Below are positions 46,913 to 55,692 of a stretch of 64,000 nt of DNA, in pieces. Position 1 is the stretch's first letter, and the number at the start of each line of letters is the position of its first letter. The position numbers were made by a program, and so were the translations under genes. The notes under the pieces were generated by a model. It did no database searches and was not told where the DNA came from. It saw only the letters and a list, made by a program, of their open reading frames with translations. Where the stretch lies: NCBI GenBank assembly GCA_041686855.1, contig JAWLDA010000005.1, positions 203,222-267,221 on the forward strand. Reading direction: 5' to 3'. This DNA comes from Limnochordia bacterium. GTDB lineage: Bacteria > Bacillota > Limnochordia > DTU080 > RSA5.

Positions 46913-47491
46913 CTAGCGTACTGGATTCTCCGGACCGCGGCCGCGAAAGGCATCGCTAAAGGCGTCCAACGCCTCGCGCTCGAGTGAGTCGAGTGGGAGC
47001 AGATGGCGCCAGGCGGCAAGGACGTACGGGTGATCCATGTTAGGGCGAGGCACCGCGATGATGGCGTCCCACTGCCCTGTATACGATTTGGTCAGCGTCG
47101 AGAGGTACGCTTCGTCCTCAGGTGTCAGATTCTCCGGGCGGTAAAAGACGACGATGTGCCCGTGTTCGAGGTTGTGCACGACGAGCTCGTCGTCGATCGG
47201 CTGGTAGTAAAAGCCTGGAGGCGCCCAACGTGCGTAGTGAGCGCCGGAGTTGGGCGGATCAGTCTTGTAGGTGACCTGTTCTCCGACCGCAACGTGGGTT
47301 GCCCCTTCGGATGCGTACACTTGGACGCGGTCGGCAATGACGTCTGGAAGCCCGCGCACTTGCGAGTCATACCAATAGGCGGCCCCGAGAACGAGGACGA
47401 CGACGATGCCTACAATAATGTAGGTTTTGTTTCGCTTTTGATTGCGACGTGCGGTAGCGGCTTGTCGCCGCGAGGAGCGCGGGGTGCTCAT
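46913..47491 (-). CDS. DUF3105-like membrane-anchored protein
   Basis: N-terminal TM helix and a conserved HNLEHGH segment. The family assignment is from memory. Confidence 0.45.
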   Translation of the reverse strand: MSTPRSSRRQAATARRNQKRNKTYIIVGIVVVLVLGAAYWYDSQVRGLPDVIADRVQVYASEGATHVAVGEQVTYKTDPPNSGAHYARWAPPGFYYQPIDDELVVHNLEHGHIVVFYRPENLTPEDEAYLSTLTKSYTGQWDAIIAVPRPNMDHPYVLAAWRHLLPLDSLEREALDAFSDAFRGRGPENPVR

Positions 47492-47500
47492 CGTTTCCGA

Positions 47501-48031
47501 TCAAACCCTTTCGTCAAGAATTTCAAGGAGGTAATTCTCCATCTCTGCGCCGGAGAGTTGTCCGATGTGTCGTGAACGAATCACTCCGCGCCGATCGATA
47601 AAGATACTGGTTGGCATAGCCCGCACGAGGTACGAGCGTCCTACCTCCCCCTTGTGATCGAGGTAAATGGGGAACGTATAATCAAAATCCTCAAGGTAAC
47701 GAACGACCGTCTGTCTCGGTTCGTCCGAAATGGCTACAACGTGAAAGGCGCCGGCGTGTTCTTCGTAGAGAGCCTGAATCTCCGGCATCTCCTCGAGGCA
47801 GGGCAGGCACCACGTCGCCCAAAAGTTTATGAATACAGGTTTGCCTTGCAAAGACGCCAAGTCGACGGCGTCACCCGAGGATAGCTCTGTCACCGTGAAA
47901 TTGGGGGCGCGCTCTCCTTCAAACGTGCCGACAGCGGGTTGGCCGAAGTACCACAGGACCAAGGCGATGCCTGCCACTACCGCCCCCCACAAAAACCAGG
48001 TTGCGCGCGCTCTCCCTTTTTCAACGCTCAT
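47501..48031 (-). CDS. TlpA/ResA-family thiol:disulfide oxidoreductase
   Basis: WATWCLPC thioredoxin active site with an N-terminal TM anchor. Confidence 0.75.
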   Translation of the reverse strand: MSVEKGRARATWFLWGAVVAGIALVLWYFGQPAVGTFEGERAPNFTVTELSSGDAVDLASLQGKPVFINFWATWCLPCLEEMPEIQALYEEHAGAFHVVAISDEPRQTVVRYLEDFDYTFPIYLDHKGEVGRSYLVRAMPTSIFIDRRGVIRSRHIGQLSGAEMENYLLEILDERV

Positions 48032-48184: not shown

Positions 48185-48616
48185 ATGAGTCTCTCAAAAC
48201 GGACCATCATAGCGCTTGTCCTGGTCGTCGGAGGTCTCGTCTATCTTATTTCGTCGGCCGTCTCCAACACAACCATGTATTATGTGACAGTCGAGGAGGC
48301 GCTTGCCAAAGGCGTCGACGCTGACAAGGGGATGCGGATCCAAGGGAACGTCGTGGGAGAGAGCATCAATTGGCAGCCGCGGGAGCTCTTGTTGCGCTTT
48401 GCGGTGGCCGGAGAGAGCGGCGAGAGTATCAAGGCCGTCTATCACGGACCTCGCCCGGACAACTTCACCGCGGATGCCCCAGCGATCCTTGAGGGGCGTT
48501 TCGGTACTGACGGTGTCTTTCAAGTCGAAAAGTTGATGCTCGCCTGTCCGTCCCGCTTCGAGGCGGAAGGGGCCGAACACCCCGGCACGATGGAGTTCCA
48601 GTACGTCGGTGAGTGA
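48185..48616 (+). CDS. ccmE: Cytochrome c maturation heme chaperone CcmE (variant heme-binding motif)
   Basis: N-terminal TM anchor and OB-fold, plus gene context with ccmABCD. At the aligned position the canonical LAKHDENY is replaced by LACPSRFE. Confidence 0.7.
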   Translation: MSLSKRTIIALVLVVGGLVYLISSAVSNTTMYYVTVEEALAKGVDADKGMRIQGNVVGESINWQPRELLLRFAVAGESGESIKAVYHGPRPDNFTADAPAILEGRFGTDGVFQVEKLMLACPSRFEAEGAEHPGTMEFQYVGE

Positions 48617-49322
48617 GGCTGCGCCGCTCCTGGCGGCTCGCGGTCTAAGCGTCCCCATCGGACGTCGCAGGCTCGTGCAGCCGACGGACCTTGCGTTGCG
48701 CGAGGGAGAATGGTGCGCCCTCATCGGTCCCAACGGAGCGGGCAAGAGCACGTTGGTGCGTGCGCTGGCGACGCTGATGCCCAGTGAAGGGCCGATCTCC
48801 TTTGCCGGCGAGGACGTTCGTCGGGATTCGCGGCGCTATCGGCGTCATTTGGGGGTCGTCTTGCACGAGCCGATGCTCTACAGGGAGTTGACGGCCCTCG
48901 AAAACCTGGAACTCTTCGCCAAGCTCTACCAGGTGACCGATCGGCGTCAAGAGATGTGGCGGCGTTTGGAACAGGTGGGTCTGGTGGAGCACGCGGTCGA
49001 GCCGGTCCGCCGCTTCTCTCGAGGGATGCTCCAGCGGCTTAGTGTGGCGCGGGCGTTGTTGCATCGGCCGCGCATCCTACTGCTGGACGAACCGCTTGAA
49101 GGGATCGACGCCACGGGGGCCGAGGAGTTGAAGGCCCTCTTTCTGCATGTGAAAGAGGAGGGCGTCGCGGCTATCTGGGTCACCCACAATTGGCGGCGGG
49201 CCTGGTCGGTGGTAGATGAGGTGTGGGAGATGCAGCGCGGCCTCATTCACAACCGCATACGGACAGAGCGGGTGAGCCCACAGACGTGGCGACCCCGGCA
49301 CTCGAGCGGGCTGGGTTACTGA
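48609..49322 (+). CDS. ccmA: Heme exporter ATPase CcmA
   Basis: Walker A GPNGAGKST, signature and Walker B LLLDEP. The GTG start overlaps the ccmE stop. Confidence 0.7.
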   Translation: MSEAAPLLAARGLSVPIGRRRLVQPTDLALREGEWCALIGPNGAGKSTLVRALATLMPSEGPISFAGEDVRRDSRRYRRHLGVVLHEPMLYRELTALENLELFAKLYQVTDRRQEMWRRLEQVGLVEHAVEPVRRFSRGMLQRLSVARALLHRPRILLLDEPLEGIDATGAEELKALFLHVKEEGVAAIWVTHNWRRAWSVVDEVWEMQRGLIHNRIRTERVSPQTWRPRHSSGLGY

Positions 49323-50002
49323 TGGGGGCGTACTGGAGTGTCGTCCTGGCCGTCGTCTGGCGGGACGCGCTGGTTGAGCGGCGGAACCTGCAGAGCTTGG
49401 TGGCGATGATCACGTTTGCTCTGTTGGTGGTGGTCCTCTTTCATTTCGCCTTTAACATTCAAGGAGGCGAGGAGGCGCGGTTCTTTCCGGGGGCCATCTG
49501 GGTCGCGCTCTTTTTCGGCGGCACCGTGGGGATGGCGCGCACGCTTCACATGGAGGAGGTAGACGGGCGGGGTCGAGCGTTGACGTTGGCGCCCGTCGAT
49601 CGAAGCGCCGTCTTCGTCGGAAAGTTTCTTTCGAATTTATTGCTTCTCGGAGTCACTCAGCTTGTAGCCGTTCCCCTCTTTGTGGCGGCGTTCCGCCTGC
49701 CAGGCATTGCCGCGCCGGGTCTCTTTGTCGGGGGATTGGCCTTAGGTACGTGGGGGTTTGCCGCCTTAGGGACGCTGCTCACAAACGCGGCGGGTGGGAG
49801 CCAGGGGCTCGGACTGATACTGCCTCTGCTACTCTTTCCTCTACTTGTGCCTGTTGCACTGGGTGGGGTGGCGTTGGTGGCAGCGGGCGTGAGCGGTGAG
49901 ACGGGGCCGGCAATAGTCTCGTGGATGCAGCTGTTGCTCGTCTTTGACCTCCTGTTCACCGTCTTGCCGGCGCTCTTTTACGAGTACATTGTGGAGGTGT
50001 AA
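49322..50002 (+). CDS. ccmB: Heme exporter membrane protein CcmB
   Basis: Six-TM protein of about 227 aa. The ATG overlaps the ccmA stop (TGATG). Confidence 0.65.
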   Translation: MGAYWSVVLAVVWRDALVERRNLQSLVAMITFALLVVVLFHFAFNIQGGEEARFFPGAIWVALFFGGTVGMARTLHMEEVDGRGRALTLAPVDRSAVFVGKFLSNLLLLGVTQLVAVPLFVAAFRLPGIAAPGLFVGGLALGTWGFAALGTLLTNAAGGSQGLGLILPLLLFPLLVPVALGGVALVAAGVSGETGPAIVSWMQLLLVFDLLFTVLPALFYEYIVEV

Positions 50003-50725
50003 GTGACGTTGCGAGTGCTGGATAAGTTGTTGAATCTCGTTATAAACGCCCGTACTCTCACCGGTGTGTTGTCGATGATCCTCGTGCCGATCTCGTTGTA
50101 CATGGTCTTTGTCTACGCCCCTCGGGAGGCGTCGATGGGCGACGTACAGCGGATCTTTTATTACCACGTCGGCACGGCCTGGAATGCGTTTCTCTTTTTT
50201 GGCCTGGTTGCAGCGAGTAGCCTTATCTACTTGGTCACCCGCAAGGAACGGTGGAATACGGCGGCACGCACCGCTGCAGAGTTGGGGGTCCTGTTTACCA
50301 CGCTGACCCTCGCAGCCGGCAGCCTGTGGGCCCGGCCCATTTGGAACGTGTGGTGGACGTGGGATCCCCGGCTTACGACCACGTTGATCCTCTGGTTTAT
50401 CTACATTGGGTATTTGTTGATTCAAGCCGGGGCGACGGAGAGCGTCGGTCAGCGTCGCTTTGGAGCGCTCGTCGGAGTGGTCGGATTCGTCGACATCCCG
50501 CTGATCCACTTCTCGGCGCGCCTCTGGCGCAGCATCCATCCTACGGTGATCCAACCCAACTCTCCCGGGATGCCGCCGGAGATGTTGATCACGATGTTTG
50601 TGTCGCTCCTCGCGTTGATGTCGGTCGGCTTCTTTCTGTGGGGTCAGCGGCTGATGATTGAGGAGCTTAAGGAGCAGGCGGAAGTGCTGAGGGACGAGTT
50701 GGCGCCTGCCAGCGTCCGGTCGTAG
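50003..50725 (+). CDS. ccmC: Heme exporter protein CcmC
   Basis: Tryptophan-rich WWD motif NVWWTWDPRL. GTG start immediately after the ccmB stop. Confidence 0.8.
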   Translation: MTLRVLDKLLNLVINARTLTGVLSMILVPISLYMVFVYAPREASMGDVQRIFYYHVGTAWNAFLFFGLVAASSLIYLVTRKERWNTAARTAAELGVLFTTLTLAAGSLWARPIWNVWWTWDPRLTTTLILWFIYIGYLLIQAGATESVGQRRFGALVGVVGFVDIPLIHFSARLWRSIHPTVIQPNSPGMPPEMLITMFVSLLALMSVGFFLWGQRLMIEELKEQAEVLRDELAPASVRS

Positions 50726-50831
50726 TGCGGCGTCGGTGCGTCCGAGAGAGTCGACCTCTCTTGGGGAACGTAAGGCGTTCGCGCACCTGTGATTCGACGT
50801 GAATTTTGGTCTGGGAACGGAGGGACATACC

Positions 50832-50978
50832 ATGTCGTATCTCTTTATCGCTTACTCGGTGGTTTGGTTGGGTGTTTTGTGGTACGTGTTTGTGTTGAAT
50901 AAGGAGAGCCGCCGCCTACGTGAGCGGATCGAATCGCTCGAAGCGTTGAAACGCAGACAGGAAGGGAGCGCTCATTGA
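50832..50978 (+). CDS. ccmD: Heme exporter protein CcmD (48 aa; below the 60-aa cutoff of the ORF track)
   Basis: MSYLFIAYSVVWLGVLWYVFVLNKESRRLRERIESLEALKRRQEGSAH: a single TM helix followed by a basic tail, positioned between ccmC and the ccmG-like gene. Confidence 0.5.
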   Translation: MSYLFIAYSVVWLGVLWYVFVLNKESRRLRERIESLEALKRRQEGSAH

Positions 50979-50980
50979 CG

Positions 50981-51535
50981 ATGAGACGGGGTGCAAAGAC
51001 GGGTCGTTCATACTTGAGCTTTGTGCCACTCGCCATCCTCGCGTTCTTTCTGGTACTCGCCTTTATGTATCAAGGGGGCATCGAAGCTCGCGCGACTGTC
51101 GGCGAGGTCGCGCCCGACTTCAAACTTCTCGGTTTGAATGGTGAAGAGGCGAGCCTTTCGGACTTTCGCGGTCGCCCCGTCGTGGTCAATTTTTGGACAA
51201 CGTGGTGTACCGAGTGCCGGACTGAGGTGCCTGAGCTGGAGCGACTCCATCAGCGCCGCGGCGATTCGGTGGTGGTCCTCGGTGTGAACATGAGAGAGCC
51301 GGAAAGCGTGATACGTCCGTTCCTTGACGAGCTCGGCGCGACCTACCCGGTCCTCCTCGACCGAGACAAAAAAGTAGCCAAAGCGTACCGCGTCACCGGC
51401 GTTCCGGAGACCTGGATCGTCTCGGCCGAAGGCGTGGCGTTGCACCGGTTTATTGGACCGGTGAGCGCGGCGCAACTGGAGCAGGCGCTCAACGTCACCT
51501 CCGGCGAGGCGACGACCGGGAAGGGAGGGGCCTAA
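50981..51535 (+). CDS. Thioredoxin-like CcmG/ResA-family thiol:disulfide oxidoreductase
   Basis: WTTWCTEC active site with an N-terminal TM anchor. Confidence 0.75.
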   Translation: MRRGAKTGRSYLSFVPLAILAFFLVLAFMYQGGIEARATVGEVAPDFKLLGLNGEEASLSDFRGRPVVVNFWTTWCTECRTEVPELERLHQRRGDSVVVLGVNMREPESVIRPFLDELGATYPVLLDRDKKVAKAYRVTGVPETWIVSAEGVALHRFIGPVSAAQLEQALNVTSGEATTGKGGA

Positions 51536-51540
51536 GGCTT

Positions 51541-52449
51541 ATGCGATTAAAGTCGATCGTCTTGTGGGGCGGCATCCTAGCCGCACTGGGGCTCTTTCTC
51601 TTCGTTGCCTTTCAATCGACTGTCACCCGCGGGATCGATGTAGGCGAGCCCGTGGATGGGTTGCGCCTCACTACGCTGTCGGGCGACGTGGTCGACCCCG
51701 GCGCCTGGCGCGGCAAAGGTGTCGTCTTGCGCTTCTCTTCGTCGAGCTGCACGACCTGTCCGCAGGACGGCCCACTCCTCGAAAGGTGGCAGCAAGACTT
51801 GGGTGACCAGATCCTGGTGCTCGCTGTCCAGGTGGGCGACACGGCGACGACGGCGCGGGCTGCATTGATGGGGGCCAACTCCGGCGTGCCGGTTCTCCTC
51901 GACACCGACGGTGCAGCGGCTCGACAACTGGGACTCAAACAGGTGCCGGCGGTCTACTTTATCACTGCACGGGGAACGCTCAGCTCCGTCTCCAATGTAG
52001 AGGTGGCGCGCACTGATATGGCCGGGCACGCCCGTCTCATGCTGGCCGGCGGTCCGACGATCGAGTCTGAGGTGCGAAGCGTCTCACAGCAGTTGCAGTG
52101 CCAGGAGTGTCAGGGTCGTTCAGCGTGGGAGTCGGACTCGCGCTCTTCGTTCGACATGAGGGAGCAAGTGCGTAACCGCCTGCTGGAGGGTGAACGGCCT
52201 GCGGAGATCTTGCAGGCGATCGCCGACGAGTATGGCGAGTGGATCTTGATGTCGCCTCCTGTTAGCGGTGTAGCGTCGCTGGCTTGGTTGTTGCCGATCG
52301 GGGCGACGCTCGTGGGTGGCGGCGCGTGGGCTCTGATGCTCAGGCGGGCCCGCAGGCGACTCCCAAAGGCGGAGGCGAAGGATGATGACACCGCGGCACT
52401 GGAGGAGAAACGGGCGCGCCTGAAGCGCCGAATCGACGAGTACATGTAG
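51541..52449 (+). CDS. Fusion of a thioredoxin-like (CcmG-type) domain and a CcmH/NrfF-like domain
   Basis: CxxC (SSCTTC) in the N-terminal half. The C-terminal half carries the CcmH motif LQCQECQGRS, a YGEWIL segment, a TM helix and a basic/acidic tail. Confidence 0.6.
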   Translation: MRLKSIVLWGGILAALGLFLFVAFQSTVTRGIDVGEPVDGLRLTTLSGDVVDPGAWRGKGVVLRFSSSSCTTCPQDGPLLERWQQDLGDQILVLAVQVGDTATTARAALMGANSGVPVLLDTDGAAARQLGLKQVPAVYFITARGTLSSVSNVEVARTDMAGHARLMLAGGPTIESEVRSVSQQLQCQECQGRSAWESDSRSSFDMREQVRNRLLEGERPAEILQAIADEYGEWILMSPPVSGVASLAWLLPIGATLVGGGAWALMLRRARRRLPKAEAKDDDTAALEEKRARLKRRIDEYM

Positions 52450-52455
52450 AGGCGG

Positions 52456-55400
52456 TTGCCAATGGAAACGCTTGCGCTCGTGGGCCGCAGCGCCCTCGTG
52501 CTTGCCTTTTTAACGTTTGTCGGCGCAGGGCTCTTGCGCCTGTTGCATCGGGAGGGTCTGGACGTCTCGGCGCCTGCCAACCGGTGGGCGCACCGTCTCC
52601 TGTGGGCTGGATGGGGGCTCACCTCGGCGGCGCTGTTCCTGTTGGTCGGACTCTTTGTGGCCGATGCGTTCGCCTTCACGTACGTGTCCGGGCGCTCAAA
52701 CCGTGAGATGGCCACCGTCTACAAGGTGACAGCGCTGTGGGCCGGACAAGAGGGATCGCTCCTCCTCTGGCTGTGGATTCAGTCCAGCTACGCTCTCTTG
52801 GTGAGTCACAAGGCGATGTGGAGCAGGCGGCTTGACGTGGGGGCCGCCGGAGTGCTCGCCCTGATCGCATCGTTCTTTGCCCTCTTGGTCGCCTTTGTGG
52901 CGAGCCCATTCCTGCTCAACGCGACTCCCCCGGCCGACGGCGCCGGCATGAATCCTATCCTGCAGAGTTACTGGATGACGGCCCATCCGGTGATGTTATA
53001 CCTCGGCTACGTCGGCCTCTCGGTTCCCTTTGCCTATGGGGCAAGCTCGTTGATCAACCGCAGCGACGCATGGATTCGGGCGACGCGGCGCTGGTCGTTG
53101 GTGGCGTGGACATTTCTAAGCATCGGCATCCTCTTCGGCGCCCGCTGGGCGTACGAGGAGCTCGGCTGGGGCGGCTACTGGGGCTGGGATCCGGTTGAGA
53201 ATGCGTCGTTTATGCCCTGGTTGGTGGCGACGGCCTTCGTTCACTCGGGCCTCATTCAAGAGAAGCGTGGGATGCTGAAGCGATGGAACCACGTGCTCAT
53301 CTTTGCCACTTACCTCTTGACGATTTTTGGCACCTTTATCACACGCAGTGGCATCCTCTCGAGCGTCCACGCGTTCGTGGAGTCGGACATCAGTCCATGG
53401 TTCATTGGCTTTGTCGGTCTCCTCGTCGCCGGGTACCTCTACGGTTTGACGCAGCGATGGGAGTCGCTGAAGGATGAGCGGCGGGTGGATTCGCCGCTCT
53501 CCAAAGAGTCGTCGTTCCTCGCCAACAACGTTGTCCTCTTGGCGAGCGCCTTCGCCATCTTTTGGGGAACCGTCTTCCCGCTGATCGCCTCTGCGCTGGG
53601 GCGGCAGGTGACGGTGGGCGCGCCGTACTTCGACAAGGTGACGGCGCCGCTCTTTTGGTTGTTGATTGTGTTGATGGGCATCGGGCCGCTCATCGCGTGG
53701 CGCCGGGCCTCGCCCCAGAGCTTGCGGCGGCACTTCACCGCCCCAGTCATCAACGCGCTCTTTATGCTGGTGTGGCTCTTAGTCGTCGGGCTGCGCGAGA
53801 GTGTGACGCTCTTTACGCTCCCCGCCGTCGTCTTTGTCTTTACGACGATCCTCATGGAGTTCGCCCGCGGCGTCGGGGTCCGCATGCGCTCGCGGGGAGA
53901 GCCCTTTTGGTTGGCGTTGCCGCGCATGATGAACCGCAGTCCAGGCCGGTACGGCGGGTACGTCGTTCACCTGGGAATTCTCCTGTTGGTCGTGGGAATC
54001 TCGGCGACCGGTGTCTACCAGCAAGAGCAAAACGCTGTGCTGGGCGTCGGTGAGGAGGCGCGCGTCGGTGGTTACACGCTCTCGCTGTACGATGTGCGCC
54101 ACACACAGCACGGTGCCGTCCCGGCCGTCGAGGCGGATTTGTTGGTCCGGGACCCTGGAGGGGAGATACTTGGATTCTTGCGCCCGAGTAAGCGGTTTTA
54201 CCCGGGGAGCGAGACGATGGGCCCCACGACAGAGGTGGCGGTCTACGGGACCTTGCGGGGGGACGTGTACGCGGTCCTGGCCGGCTGGGAACCGTACGGC
54301 AGCCTCGTCGGCTTTAAGCTTTACTTCACGCCGTTGGTGTGGCTGATTTGGACCGGGGGAGGCCTCCTGGTCTTTGGCGGGCTCTTCGCCTTTTGGCCGC
54401 GCACCAAGCGGGTCCTCTCGGAATCCGAGCACGCGTTGGCATCGATGGCGGAGCTTGAGTACGACTTTCGGATGGGGAAGGTGAACGAGAGCGAGTACCG
54501 TGCGCTCTTTGTCGAGTTGTCGGGGAAAGCTGAGTCGTACTTGGCGCGAGAGGCTGAAGCGATTCGGCGCGTTGAAGCCGAGTTGGCGGGCGCCTCTGAG
54601 GACGCGAAGGAGCAAGACTCGTCTGGATCTCAAGGCGGCGACCGCTCGGACGGTCGAGGCAATGGCGCCAAGCTGTTGAGCGTTGCGCTCCTCGCGGGTA
54701 TGCTCAGCCTGAGCCTTCCCGCGTGTGTATCGGCCCAGGCGCCGGCGGTGCCACCGGTCGAAGGCGGAATGCCGAGCGGCATGGGACCAGGCGTCGCGGT
54801 GACGAGCGACGTCCTCGTCGTCAGCGCCATTGGGCCTCGACTCTCAGTCCTCAACTTTGTGAACCTCACTAACGTTGGTGAAGAGGCGGTCGGTGAGATT
54901 CACGTACCGATTCCCAAAGGGGCGATCCTGCAGGAGCGGCAGCCCGAGCGACTCGCCCCTGCCGAGGACGGAACACTCGTTGACCCTGAAGCGCTCCTCC
55001 CCGACGAGGATCGACGCTACACTCTGCGCTACGAGATACCGGTGATGCGGTGGCCGTACCCCTTTTTGAGAGAGATCGAGTACCCGACTCGGGAGTTGAC
55101 GCTCCTCGGCGACACACAGAACCTGAACGTGAGTGGCGTCGACGTCGTCCAGGCGGGGCAGGAGAGCGTGGCTGGAGCCGTCTTTACGACCTTCCGAAGC
55201 GAGTGGATTGCGCCGGGGACGACGTGGCAGGCTGTCTTTAAGCCGACGGCGGCCCTCGGCCCCCTCCCAGGTTGGGACGAGCGTATCGATCGACTCGACG
55301 TGATCGCCGAAGCGGATCGCTTCCCTGGTGACTGGTTGTTTCAGCAGCTTGTAGGGTTGCCCGGATGGCTGCAGGGCGCCGTGTTGATCCTCGTAGGCGC

Positions 55401-55692
55401 AGGGAGTGTCGCTGTTCTCCTGCGGCGACGGGCGGCTCACGGCTCCGGCGAGACCGATGCTGCGCCCACCGCGGGCATCGGTCCGACGCGTGCGGAGGGC
55501 ACGCCTGCGGGGACCTCAGCCGGATCGGACCCCTCGGGGGATTCCGGTGAGACAGAACGAGATGCGTTGTTGCGCGCGGTCGCCCGACTCGACATCGCCT
55601 ACAGTGAAGGGGCGTTGCCTGAGCGTGGATACCGGCGCCGGCGGCTGGCGCTCATCGAACGTTTAAAGAAGGAGATGCCGCGTGGCACCTAA
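52456..55692 (+). CDS. ccmF: CcmF (cytochrome c heme lyase subunit) fused to a C-terminal extension of about 430 aa
   Basis: The CcmF core spans about residues 1-650 with a WGGYWGWDPVEN WWD-type motif and conserved His residues. One uninterrupted ORF then continues through a charged linker, a signal-peptide-like segment, a domain of about 280 aa, a further TM helix and a basic tail. Confidence 0.75.
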   Translation: MPMETLALVGRSALVLAFLTFVGAGLLRLLHREGLDVSAPANRWAHRLLWAGWGLTSAALFLLVGLFVADAFAFTYVSGRSNREMATVYKVTALWAGQEGSLLLWLWIQSSYALLVSHKAMWSRRLDVGAAGVLALIASFFALLVAFVASPFLLNATPPADGAGMNPILQSYWMTAHPVMLYLGYVGLSVPFAYGASSLINRSDAWIRATRRWSLVAWTFLSIGILFGARWAYEELGWGGYWGWDPVENASFMPWLVATAFVHSGLIQEKRGMLKRWNHVLIFATYLLTIFGTFITRSGILSSVHAFVESDISPWFIGFVGLLVAGYLYGLTQRWESLKDERRVDSPLSKESSFLANNVVLLASAFAIFWGTVFPLIASALGRQVTVGAPYFDKVTAPLFWLLIVLMGIGPLIAWRRASPQSLRRHFTAPVINALFMLVWLLVVGLRESVTLFTLPAVVFVFTTILMEFARGVGVRMRSRGEPFWLALPRMMNRSPGRYGGYVVHLGILLLVVGISATGVYQQEQNAVLGVGEEARVGGYTLSLYDVRHTQHGAVPAVEADLLVRDPGGEILGFLRPSKRFYPGSETMGPTTEVAVYGTLRGDVYAVLAGWEPYGSLVGFKLYFTPLVWLIWTGGGLLVFGGLFAFWPRTKRVLSESEHALASMAELEYDFRMGKVNESEYRALFVELSGKAESYLAREAEAIRRVEAELAGASEDAKEQDSSGSQGGDRSDGRGNGAKLLSVALLAGMLSLSLPACVSAQAPAVPPVEGGMPSGMGPGVAVTSDVLVVSAIGPRLSVLNFVNLTNVGEEAVGEIHVPIPKGAILQERQPERLAPAEDGTLVDPEALLPDEDRRYTLRYEIPVMRWPYPFLREIEYPTRELTLLGDTQNLNVSGVDVVQAGQESVAGAVFTTFRSEWIAPGTTWQAVFKPTAALGPLPGWDERIDRLDVIAEADRFPGDWLFQQLVGLPGWLQGAVLILVGAGSVAVLLRRRAAHGSGETDAAPTAGIGPTRAEGTPAGTSAGSDPSGDSGETERDALLRAVARLDIAYSEGALPERGYRRRRLALIERLKKEMPRGT

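Follow-up and report, generated by a model that had tools for sequence, protein, structure and literature searches.

A Cys-type CcmE with Phe at the Tyr position of its haem-binding motif, encoded at the head of a complete ccm operon in a Limnochordia bacterium

The stretch of DNA analysed here (the window; 64,000 nucleotides, 60.7% G+C) carries on its forward strand, between positions 48185 and 55692, an operon that begins with ccmE and continues with ccmA, ccmB, ccmC, ccmD, resA, a gene for a thioredoxin::CcmH fusion and ccmF, which together make up a complete System I set. The features of this locus are the following.

48185..48616, + strand: ccmE, Cys-type haem chaperone of 143 amino acids (PF03100)
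48545..48559, + strand: haem-binding motif C121-P-S-R-F125 of CcmE, in alignments the counterpart of E. coli H130-D-E-N-Y134 and of Desulfovibrio CPSKY
48578..48604, + strand: tail segment H132...Y140 (HPGTMEFQY) of CcmE, variable and, according to tail comparison and tree, a remnant of a longer ancestral tail
48609..49322, + strand: ccmA, ABC ATPase (PF00005, 108.9 bits; NCBIfam CcmA models 132.6 and 120.9 bits, both under cut-off)
49223..50002, + strand: ccmB (PF03379, 73.1 bits)
50003..50725, + strand: ccmC (PF01578, TIGR01191)
50799..50978, + strand: ccmD of the alternative CcmD family (TIGR04391, 43 bits, cut-off 24)
50975..51535, + strand: resA/ccmG-like thiol-disulfide oxidoreductase (PF00578, PF08534; CTEC at residues 78-81; NF002854 ResA 111 bits, under cut-off)
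51541..52449, + strand: thioredoxin-like::CcmH fusion (PF00578 at residues 34-148; PF03918, 88.1 bits, at residues 172-288)
52456..55692, + strand: ccmF, 1078 amino acids (PF16327, PF01578), with a haem lyase core at residues 1 to about 652 and an extension of about 425 amino acids

As expected for a genuine CcmE, the ccmE gene is encoded together with ccmABCD and ccmF, and the GTG start of ccmA at 48609 lies in an 8-nucleotide overlap with the ccmE stop. In CcmC, which matches E. coli CcmC (7F02_C) with E = 6.7e-25, the WWD motif (WNVWWTWDPRLT) is intact and both His ligands are aligned, and the core of CcmF (residues 6-651) matches the CcmF of T. thermophilus (6ZMQ) with E = 6e-106. The conservation of the WWD and His segments of CcmC and of the CcmF core suggests that the machinery around CcmE is intact. 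The fusion protein contains CTTC (residues 70-73) in its TlpA/ResA-like thioredoxin domain and CQEC (residues 187-190) in its CcmH domain, and its two halves match adjacent same-strand stretches in the Limnochordales-type loci L006, L007, L008 and L037. For the C-terminal approximately 425 residues of CcmF (54421-55692, + strand) no significant domain was detected in the Pfam scan; this extension comprises hydrophobic segments and two similar short elements of the form E/D-Y/I-x-x-x-x-G-x-x-x-E-x-x-Y-R, is kept at 29-39% identity in the genome loci L001-L003, L007, L008 and L037, and might be a stand-in for CcmI. No credible CXXCH protein was found in the 64-kb window, which contains one implausible CXXCH reading frame, so that the c-type cytochrome substrates must be encoded elsewhere in the genome and the use of the system is assumed here. 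An Rfam scan of the window (1-64000) gave no family at gathering thresholds.

At 46913-48031, on the reverse strand, the window also contains a second thioredoxin-like gene (AhpC/TSA, Redoxin) and a DUF3105 gene, which are divergent from the ccm operon. Synteny of the two genes with the operon extends to L001-L003 and suggests that DUF3105 is functionally connected to the maturation of cytochrome c or to thiol redox processes.

The gene order in L001-L003, three loci whose CcmE also has CPSRF, is identical to that of the window and includes the divergent thioredoxin and DUF3105 genes, the thioredoxin::CcmH fusion and the extended CcmF. In the Limnochordales-type loci L007, L008 and L037, in which CcmE bears Tyr at the last motif position, the order is the same except that the two genes upstream and the place of the ResA-like gene differ, L006 agrees as far as its contig reaches, and Limnochordales loci with CVSKY are likewise among those syntenic with the ccm operon. 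The preservation of gene order in Tyr-bearing loci suggests that the change from Tyr to Phe arose within an otherwise unchanged system.

The ccmE reading frame extends from an ATG at 48185 to a TGA at 48614-48616 (+ strand) and translates into 143 amino acids. Its product matches the Pfam CcmE model PF03100 with 71.7 bits (cut-off 24.6) over residues 31-127, corresponding to profile positions 2-98 of 99, and falls below the cut-off of all six NCBIfam CcmE equivalog models (PRK13254/PRK13165 type), the best score being 46 against 126 bits. An AlphaFold2 model built on a 69-sequence family alignment (mean pLDDT 90.2) predicts a membrane helix at residues 5-29, an OB-fold beta-barrel at residues 33-119 and a flexible tail at residues 120-143, and the best Foldseek matches of this model in the PDB (8CE8_E, 1LM0, 2KCT, 1SR3 and 1J6Q) are all CcmE structures. 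The predicted protein has the architecture of CcmE, with a membrane anchor, an OB barrel and a C-terminal tail holding the position of the haem-binding motif. Since the model is coil from residue 120 onward, with a lower confidence (pLDDT 64-75), CPSRF would open the flexible tail, like the haem-binding motif in the solved CcmE structures.

The motif is encoded by the codons tgt ccg tcc cgc ttc, with tgt for C121 at 48545-48547 and ttc for F125 at 48557-48559. In a MAFFT alignment of 177 sequences, the column block of HDENY in E. coli CcmE is occupied by CPSRF. The equivalence was retested independently by running a profile of 69 CcmE family members against PDB sequences, which confirmed the correspondence to H130 and Y134. 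The profile segment kCpSky pairs with KHDENY of the CcmEs from E. coli (8CE8_E, 1SR3) and Shewanella (1J6Q) and with TKCP of the Desulfovibrio vulgaris protein (2KCT); a single-sequence search of the PDB sequences recovered Shewanella CcmE only, weakly (E = 0.005) and with an aligned part ending before the motif. In these alignments C121 corresponds to H130 of E. coli and to the Cys of 2KCT, the hallmark of System I*, and F125 takes the place of the Tyr, so that the motif conforms neither to the canonical HxxxY of His-type CcmE nor to the CxxxY, typically CPSKY, of the Cys type. Both the MAFFT alignment and the 69-member profile thus bear out the original prediction of a CcmE without HxxxY that has CPSRF at the aligned position, with Cys for His and Phe for Tyr, and no alignment placed a His and a Tyr at the canonical positions. 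The predicted spacing of the next His...Tyr pair (9-17 residues downstream) has to be corrected, with H132 lying 11 and Y140 19 residues past C121 (7 and 15 past F125).

A word-indexed protein search yielded 28 proteins with 51-100% identity. All 25 close homologues of full length (56-84% identity), which stem from independent metagenomes, contain CPSRF; one further homologue (P0027) ends short of the motif region, and the most distant one (P0028, 51% identity) has CPSRY. Across homologues of 51-84% identity from many metagenomes, CPSRF and 27 further positions are invariant. HMMER, run exhaustively against 1.84 billion cluster representatives (E ≤ 0.001), gave 1,532 matches, and the best 150 of them were aligned. 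Every one of these 150 nearest 50%-identity cluster representatives (best 150 of 1,532) has Cys at the motif position, 140 with C-x-x-x-Y, 6 with CPSKF and 2 with CPSKM, in agreement with the prediction of another non-canonical variant akin to the CcmEs with Cys known from sulfate reducers and archaea. The motif counts among the 177 aligned sequences, which combine both searches (for HMMER the best 150 of 1,532) with the query and E. coli, are listed below.

CPSKY: 96
CPSRF (query included): 26
CPSRY: 22
CASKY: 6
CPSKF: 6
CPSKM: 2
remaining C-x-x-x-Y variants: few

Cys121 is one of just four invariant columns in the 69-sequence alignment (A2). Since Phe in place of Tyr has already been published (PMC3601427), and 8 of the 150 representatives (best 150 of 1,532), all outside the CPSRF clade, carry Phe or Met, the Tyr is typical of the Cys-type family but does not define it.

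In an NJ tree computed without the motif and tail columns, the CPSRF sequences form a single clade, with CPSRY proteins (P0028 and P0029) as its sister, and the remaining Tyr-less proteins comprise a CPSKF/CPSKM clade elsewhere in the tree and, standing alone, P0134. The separation of these three groups indicates at least three losses of the Tyr within Cys-type CcmE. The two CPSKM sequences, the metagenomic representatives P0106 and P0175, adjoin the CPSKF clade and have Met at the place of the Tyr, which could serve as an iron ligand; there is no mention of this variant in the literature cited here.

With 26 clusters (90% identity) and three genome loci, the CPSRF clade is well sampled. In a scan of genome collections, with search patterns that were biased toward this motif, the CPSRF loci L001-L003 were assigned to uncultured Clostridia/Bacillota MAGs, and loci with CVSKY, CASKY, CPSKY or CPSRY were found in Limnochordales, other Bacillota, Caldilineaceae, Anaerolineales and Dehalococcoidia. 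A related cluster includes a CcmE annotated by NCBI as 'Limnochordia bacterium'. Two MAGs carry two Cys-type ccmE loci each, L005 and L008 in Limnochordales SMAG_U7113 and L035 and L036 in Dehalococcoidia ERP108616_co1_86, and thus CcmE/Ccm paralogy exists in those lineages.

The window protein is very probably a functional Cys-type (System I*) CcmE in which Cys121 provides the link to haem and the Tyr ligand is replaced by Phe. Haem would be displayed on the outer membrane face by CcmCD, held in the WWD site of CcmC, and Cys121, located in the flexible stretch that immediately follows the OB barrel, would form a covalent, thioether-type bond with a haem vinyl group, standing in for the His-vinyl bond of E. 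coli CcmE. Holo-CcmE would be set free by CcmAB, and the haem would be handed to reduced CXXCH apocytochromes by CcmF together with the thioredoxin::CcmH fusion and the ResA-like reductase. Phe125, at the place of E. coli Tyr134, would be unable to ligate iron, which presumably leaves the iron either five-coordinate or with water or a partner protein as its ligand; packing of the aromatic ring against the porphyrin may be retained. Both the covalent attachment at Cys121 and the tolerance of the missing Tyr ligand are inferred for this protein, the role of Cys121 by homology to E. coli His130. Covalent haem binding is known for the Cys-containing CcmE of Desulfovibrio, the operon of which supports the maturation of cytochromes c in E. 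coli (PMC3601427), and C120 of Methanosarcina acetivorans CcmE is needed for haem attachment and cytochrome c production (PMC9084895). As a counterpoint, CcmE from D. vulgaris was reported to bind ferric haem non-covalently via its Cys in vitro (PMC3884852), which leaves some doubt as to covalent bonding in Cys-type CcmEs.

With regard to the second position, Tyr134 of E. coli CcmE is the haem iron ligand after release (PMC3884852, PMC12077264), and one model of the release involves a ligand switch to this residue (PMC12077264). This model counts against the explanation given here, since Phe cannot perform the switch. In E. coli the Tyr side chain can be removed with function being kept (PMC3601427), and the natural Tyr-less lineages agree with this result. 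In a more novel reading, which we consider improbable, the CPSRF, CPSKF and CPSKM lineages would run a complete CcmABCD-E-FH pathway with no residue at the place of Tyr134 that could ligate iron; a minority variant would have the His of an ancestral 'EHP' element act as axial ligand where sub-branches keep it. If true, the Tyr-less pathway would put to the test, in nature, the model in which release of holo-CcmE involves a ligand switch to Tyr.

Alternatively, His132, with or without Tyr140, would attach the haem covalently or replace the Tyr as axial iron ligand, and the original prediction had allowed for attachment by such a downstream His/Tyr residue. An 'E-H-P' element at the position of H132, 11 residues past the Cys, does occur in 9 of the 26 CPSRF sequences, in two sub-branches, and a tail His is commoner in CPSRF proteins (14/26) than in the Tyr-type proteins of the aligned set (24/139; best 150 of 1,532). 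However, the tails of the other 12 CPSRF cluster sequences are devoid of His, two CPSRF proteins (P0005 and P0010) end four residues past the Phe, and a tail His is present in none of the eight CPSKF/CPSKM proteins. Y140 lacks a conserved counterpart in the other 25 CPSRF sequences and is essentially unique to the window protein, in a tail that is itself modelled at low confidence (pLDDT 64-75). Moreover, 'HP' is also found in the tails of Tyr-bearing outgroup proteins, P0029 (CPSRY...AHPEY) and P0030 (CTSKY...SHPGDY), so that the element is older than the change from Tyr to Phe and does not represent a replacement for the Tyr. A role of His132 as compensation for the lost Tyr was rejected, as HP predates the substitution and was lost repeatedly. 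Judged from these sequence comparisons the H132...Y140 segment is not an attachment site, and haem binding by it appears quite unlikely.

Loss of the Tyr on top of the absent His could also mark a decaying, non-functional CcmE, i.e. a pseudogenised or repurposed OB-fold protein, and both the failure of all six NCBIfam CcmE equivalog models, far under their cut-offs, and the absence of cytochrome c genes from the window would fit such a scenario. However, ccmE has an uninterrupted frame with translational coupling to ccmA and stands at the head of a complete ccm operon with synteny kept in L001-L003, the Pfam domain model still matches, and the invariance of CPSRF and 27 further positions across divergent homologues indicates purifying selection. 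The low NCBIfam scores are consistent with models that miss the Cys-type branch, because the 150 nearest representatives (best 150 of 1,532) are all of the Cys type. Thus, decay of the gene is very unlikely in our view. Finally, TAC and TTC are separated by one base, and a Tyr codon might have been turned into one for Phe by faulty sequencing or assembly, but the Phe was found in all 25 full-length independent clusters (NCBI, JGI, ENA and Logan) as well as in the genome loci L001-L003. This recurrence of CPSRF effectively refutes an error, the chance of which we regard as negligible, and argues equally against coincidence.

Cys-type CcmE has been described from firmicutes and chloroflexi, with CPSKY predominating and F replacing Y in four examples, and CcmH is kept in about one third of the Cys-type systems (Stevens et al., 2011; PMC3601427). 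Because this 2011 review covers both substitutions in the motif (His to Cys and Tyr to Phe), a host among the firmicutes and the presence of CcmH, the window CcmE is an ordinary member of the group and no new kind of CcmE, and the novelty implied by the original prediction was too high, as Cys-type CcmEs of firmicutes and chloroflexi and the change from Y to F had both been published. Our full-text literature search on CPSKY and CcmE returned no later paper treating the F variant of Cys-type CcmE. The window gene by itself matters little. What is added here is that the F variant, formerly a footnote of four genomes, is fixed in a well-populated, uncultured Limnochordia-like clade, that loss of the Tyr is recurrent (at least three times, with one lineage changing to Met) and that the tail His is not compensatory. 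The repeated loss lends support to the conclusion from E. coli mutants that this ligand can be dispensed with, and Tyr-less systems which retain CcmD, CcmG and CcmH could be used for testing models of holo-CcmE release and axial ligation.

Among known systems, the System I* of Desulfovibrio (Allen et al., 2006; Goddard et al., 2010; both as cited in PMC3601427) shares with the window protein the Cys in place of the haem-binding His and the C-P-S core, as seen in the CcmE of D. desulfuricans and D. vulgaris (2KCT), and CcmD is present in both systems. The motif itself differs, being CPSKY in Desulfovibrio and CPSRF in the window. The structure 2KCT has the same OB fold and flexible tail (Foldseek TM-score 0.75 on the target), whereas in sequence it is distant and was recovered only by the family profile. 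The Desulfovibrio system lacks CcmH and CcmG, while in the window operon CcmH forms one domain of a thioredoxin fusion and a ResA/CcmG-like protein is encoded as well; with a PF03918 match of 88.1 bits and this latter protein, it departs from the original description of System I*, in which CcmH and CcmG are absent. However, absence of CcmH is not characteristic of Cys-type systems, because about one third of them contain it (PMC3601427).

The window CcmE deviates from HxxxY at the same two positions, and with the same residues, as the four Cys-type CcmEs with F for Y surveyed by Stevens et al. (2011; PMC3601427), which could belong to the CPSRF or the CPSKF clade. Likewise, the CcmE of M. acetivorans (CXXXY, C120) is of the Cys type, and genetic data demonstrate that its Cys is required for haem attachment (PMC9084895). 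In contrast to the window operon, which includes CcmD and CcmH and has no Tyr in the motif, the M. acetivorans system lacks CcmD, CcmH and CcmI and has kept the Tyr (PMC9084895). Compared to E. coli CcmE (H130/Y134; 1SR3, 8CE8), to which its sequence identity is about 20%, the window protein would carry an inferred Cys thioether and a non-ligating Phe in place of the His-vinyl bond and the Tyr iron ligand. Nevertheless, both proteins have the same membrane helix, OB barrel and tail, with the motif located just after the last strand, and both operons share the partners CcmABCD and CcmFH.
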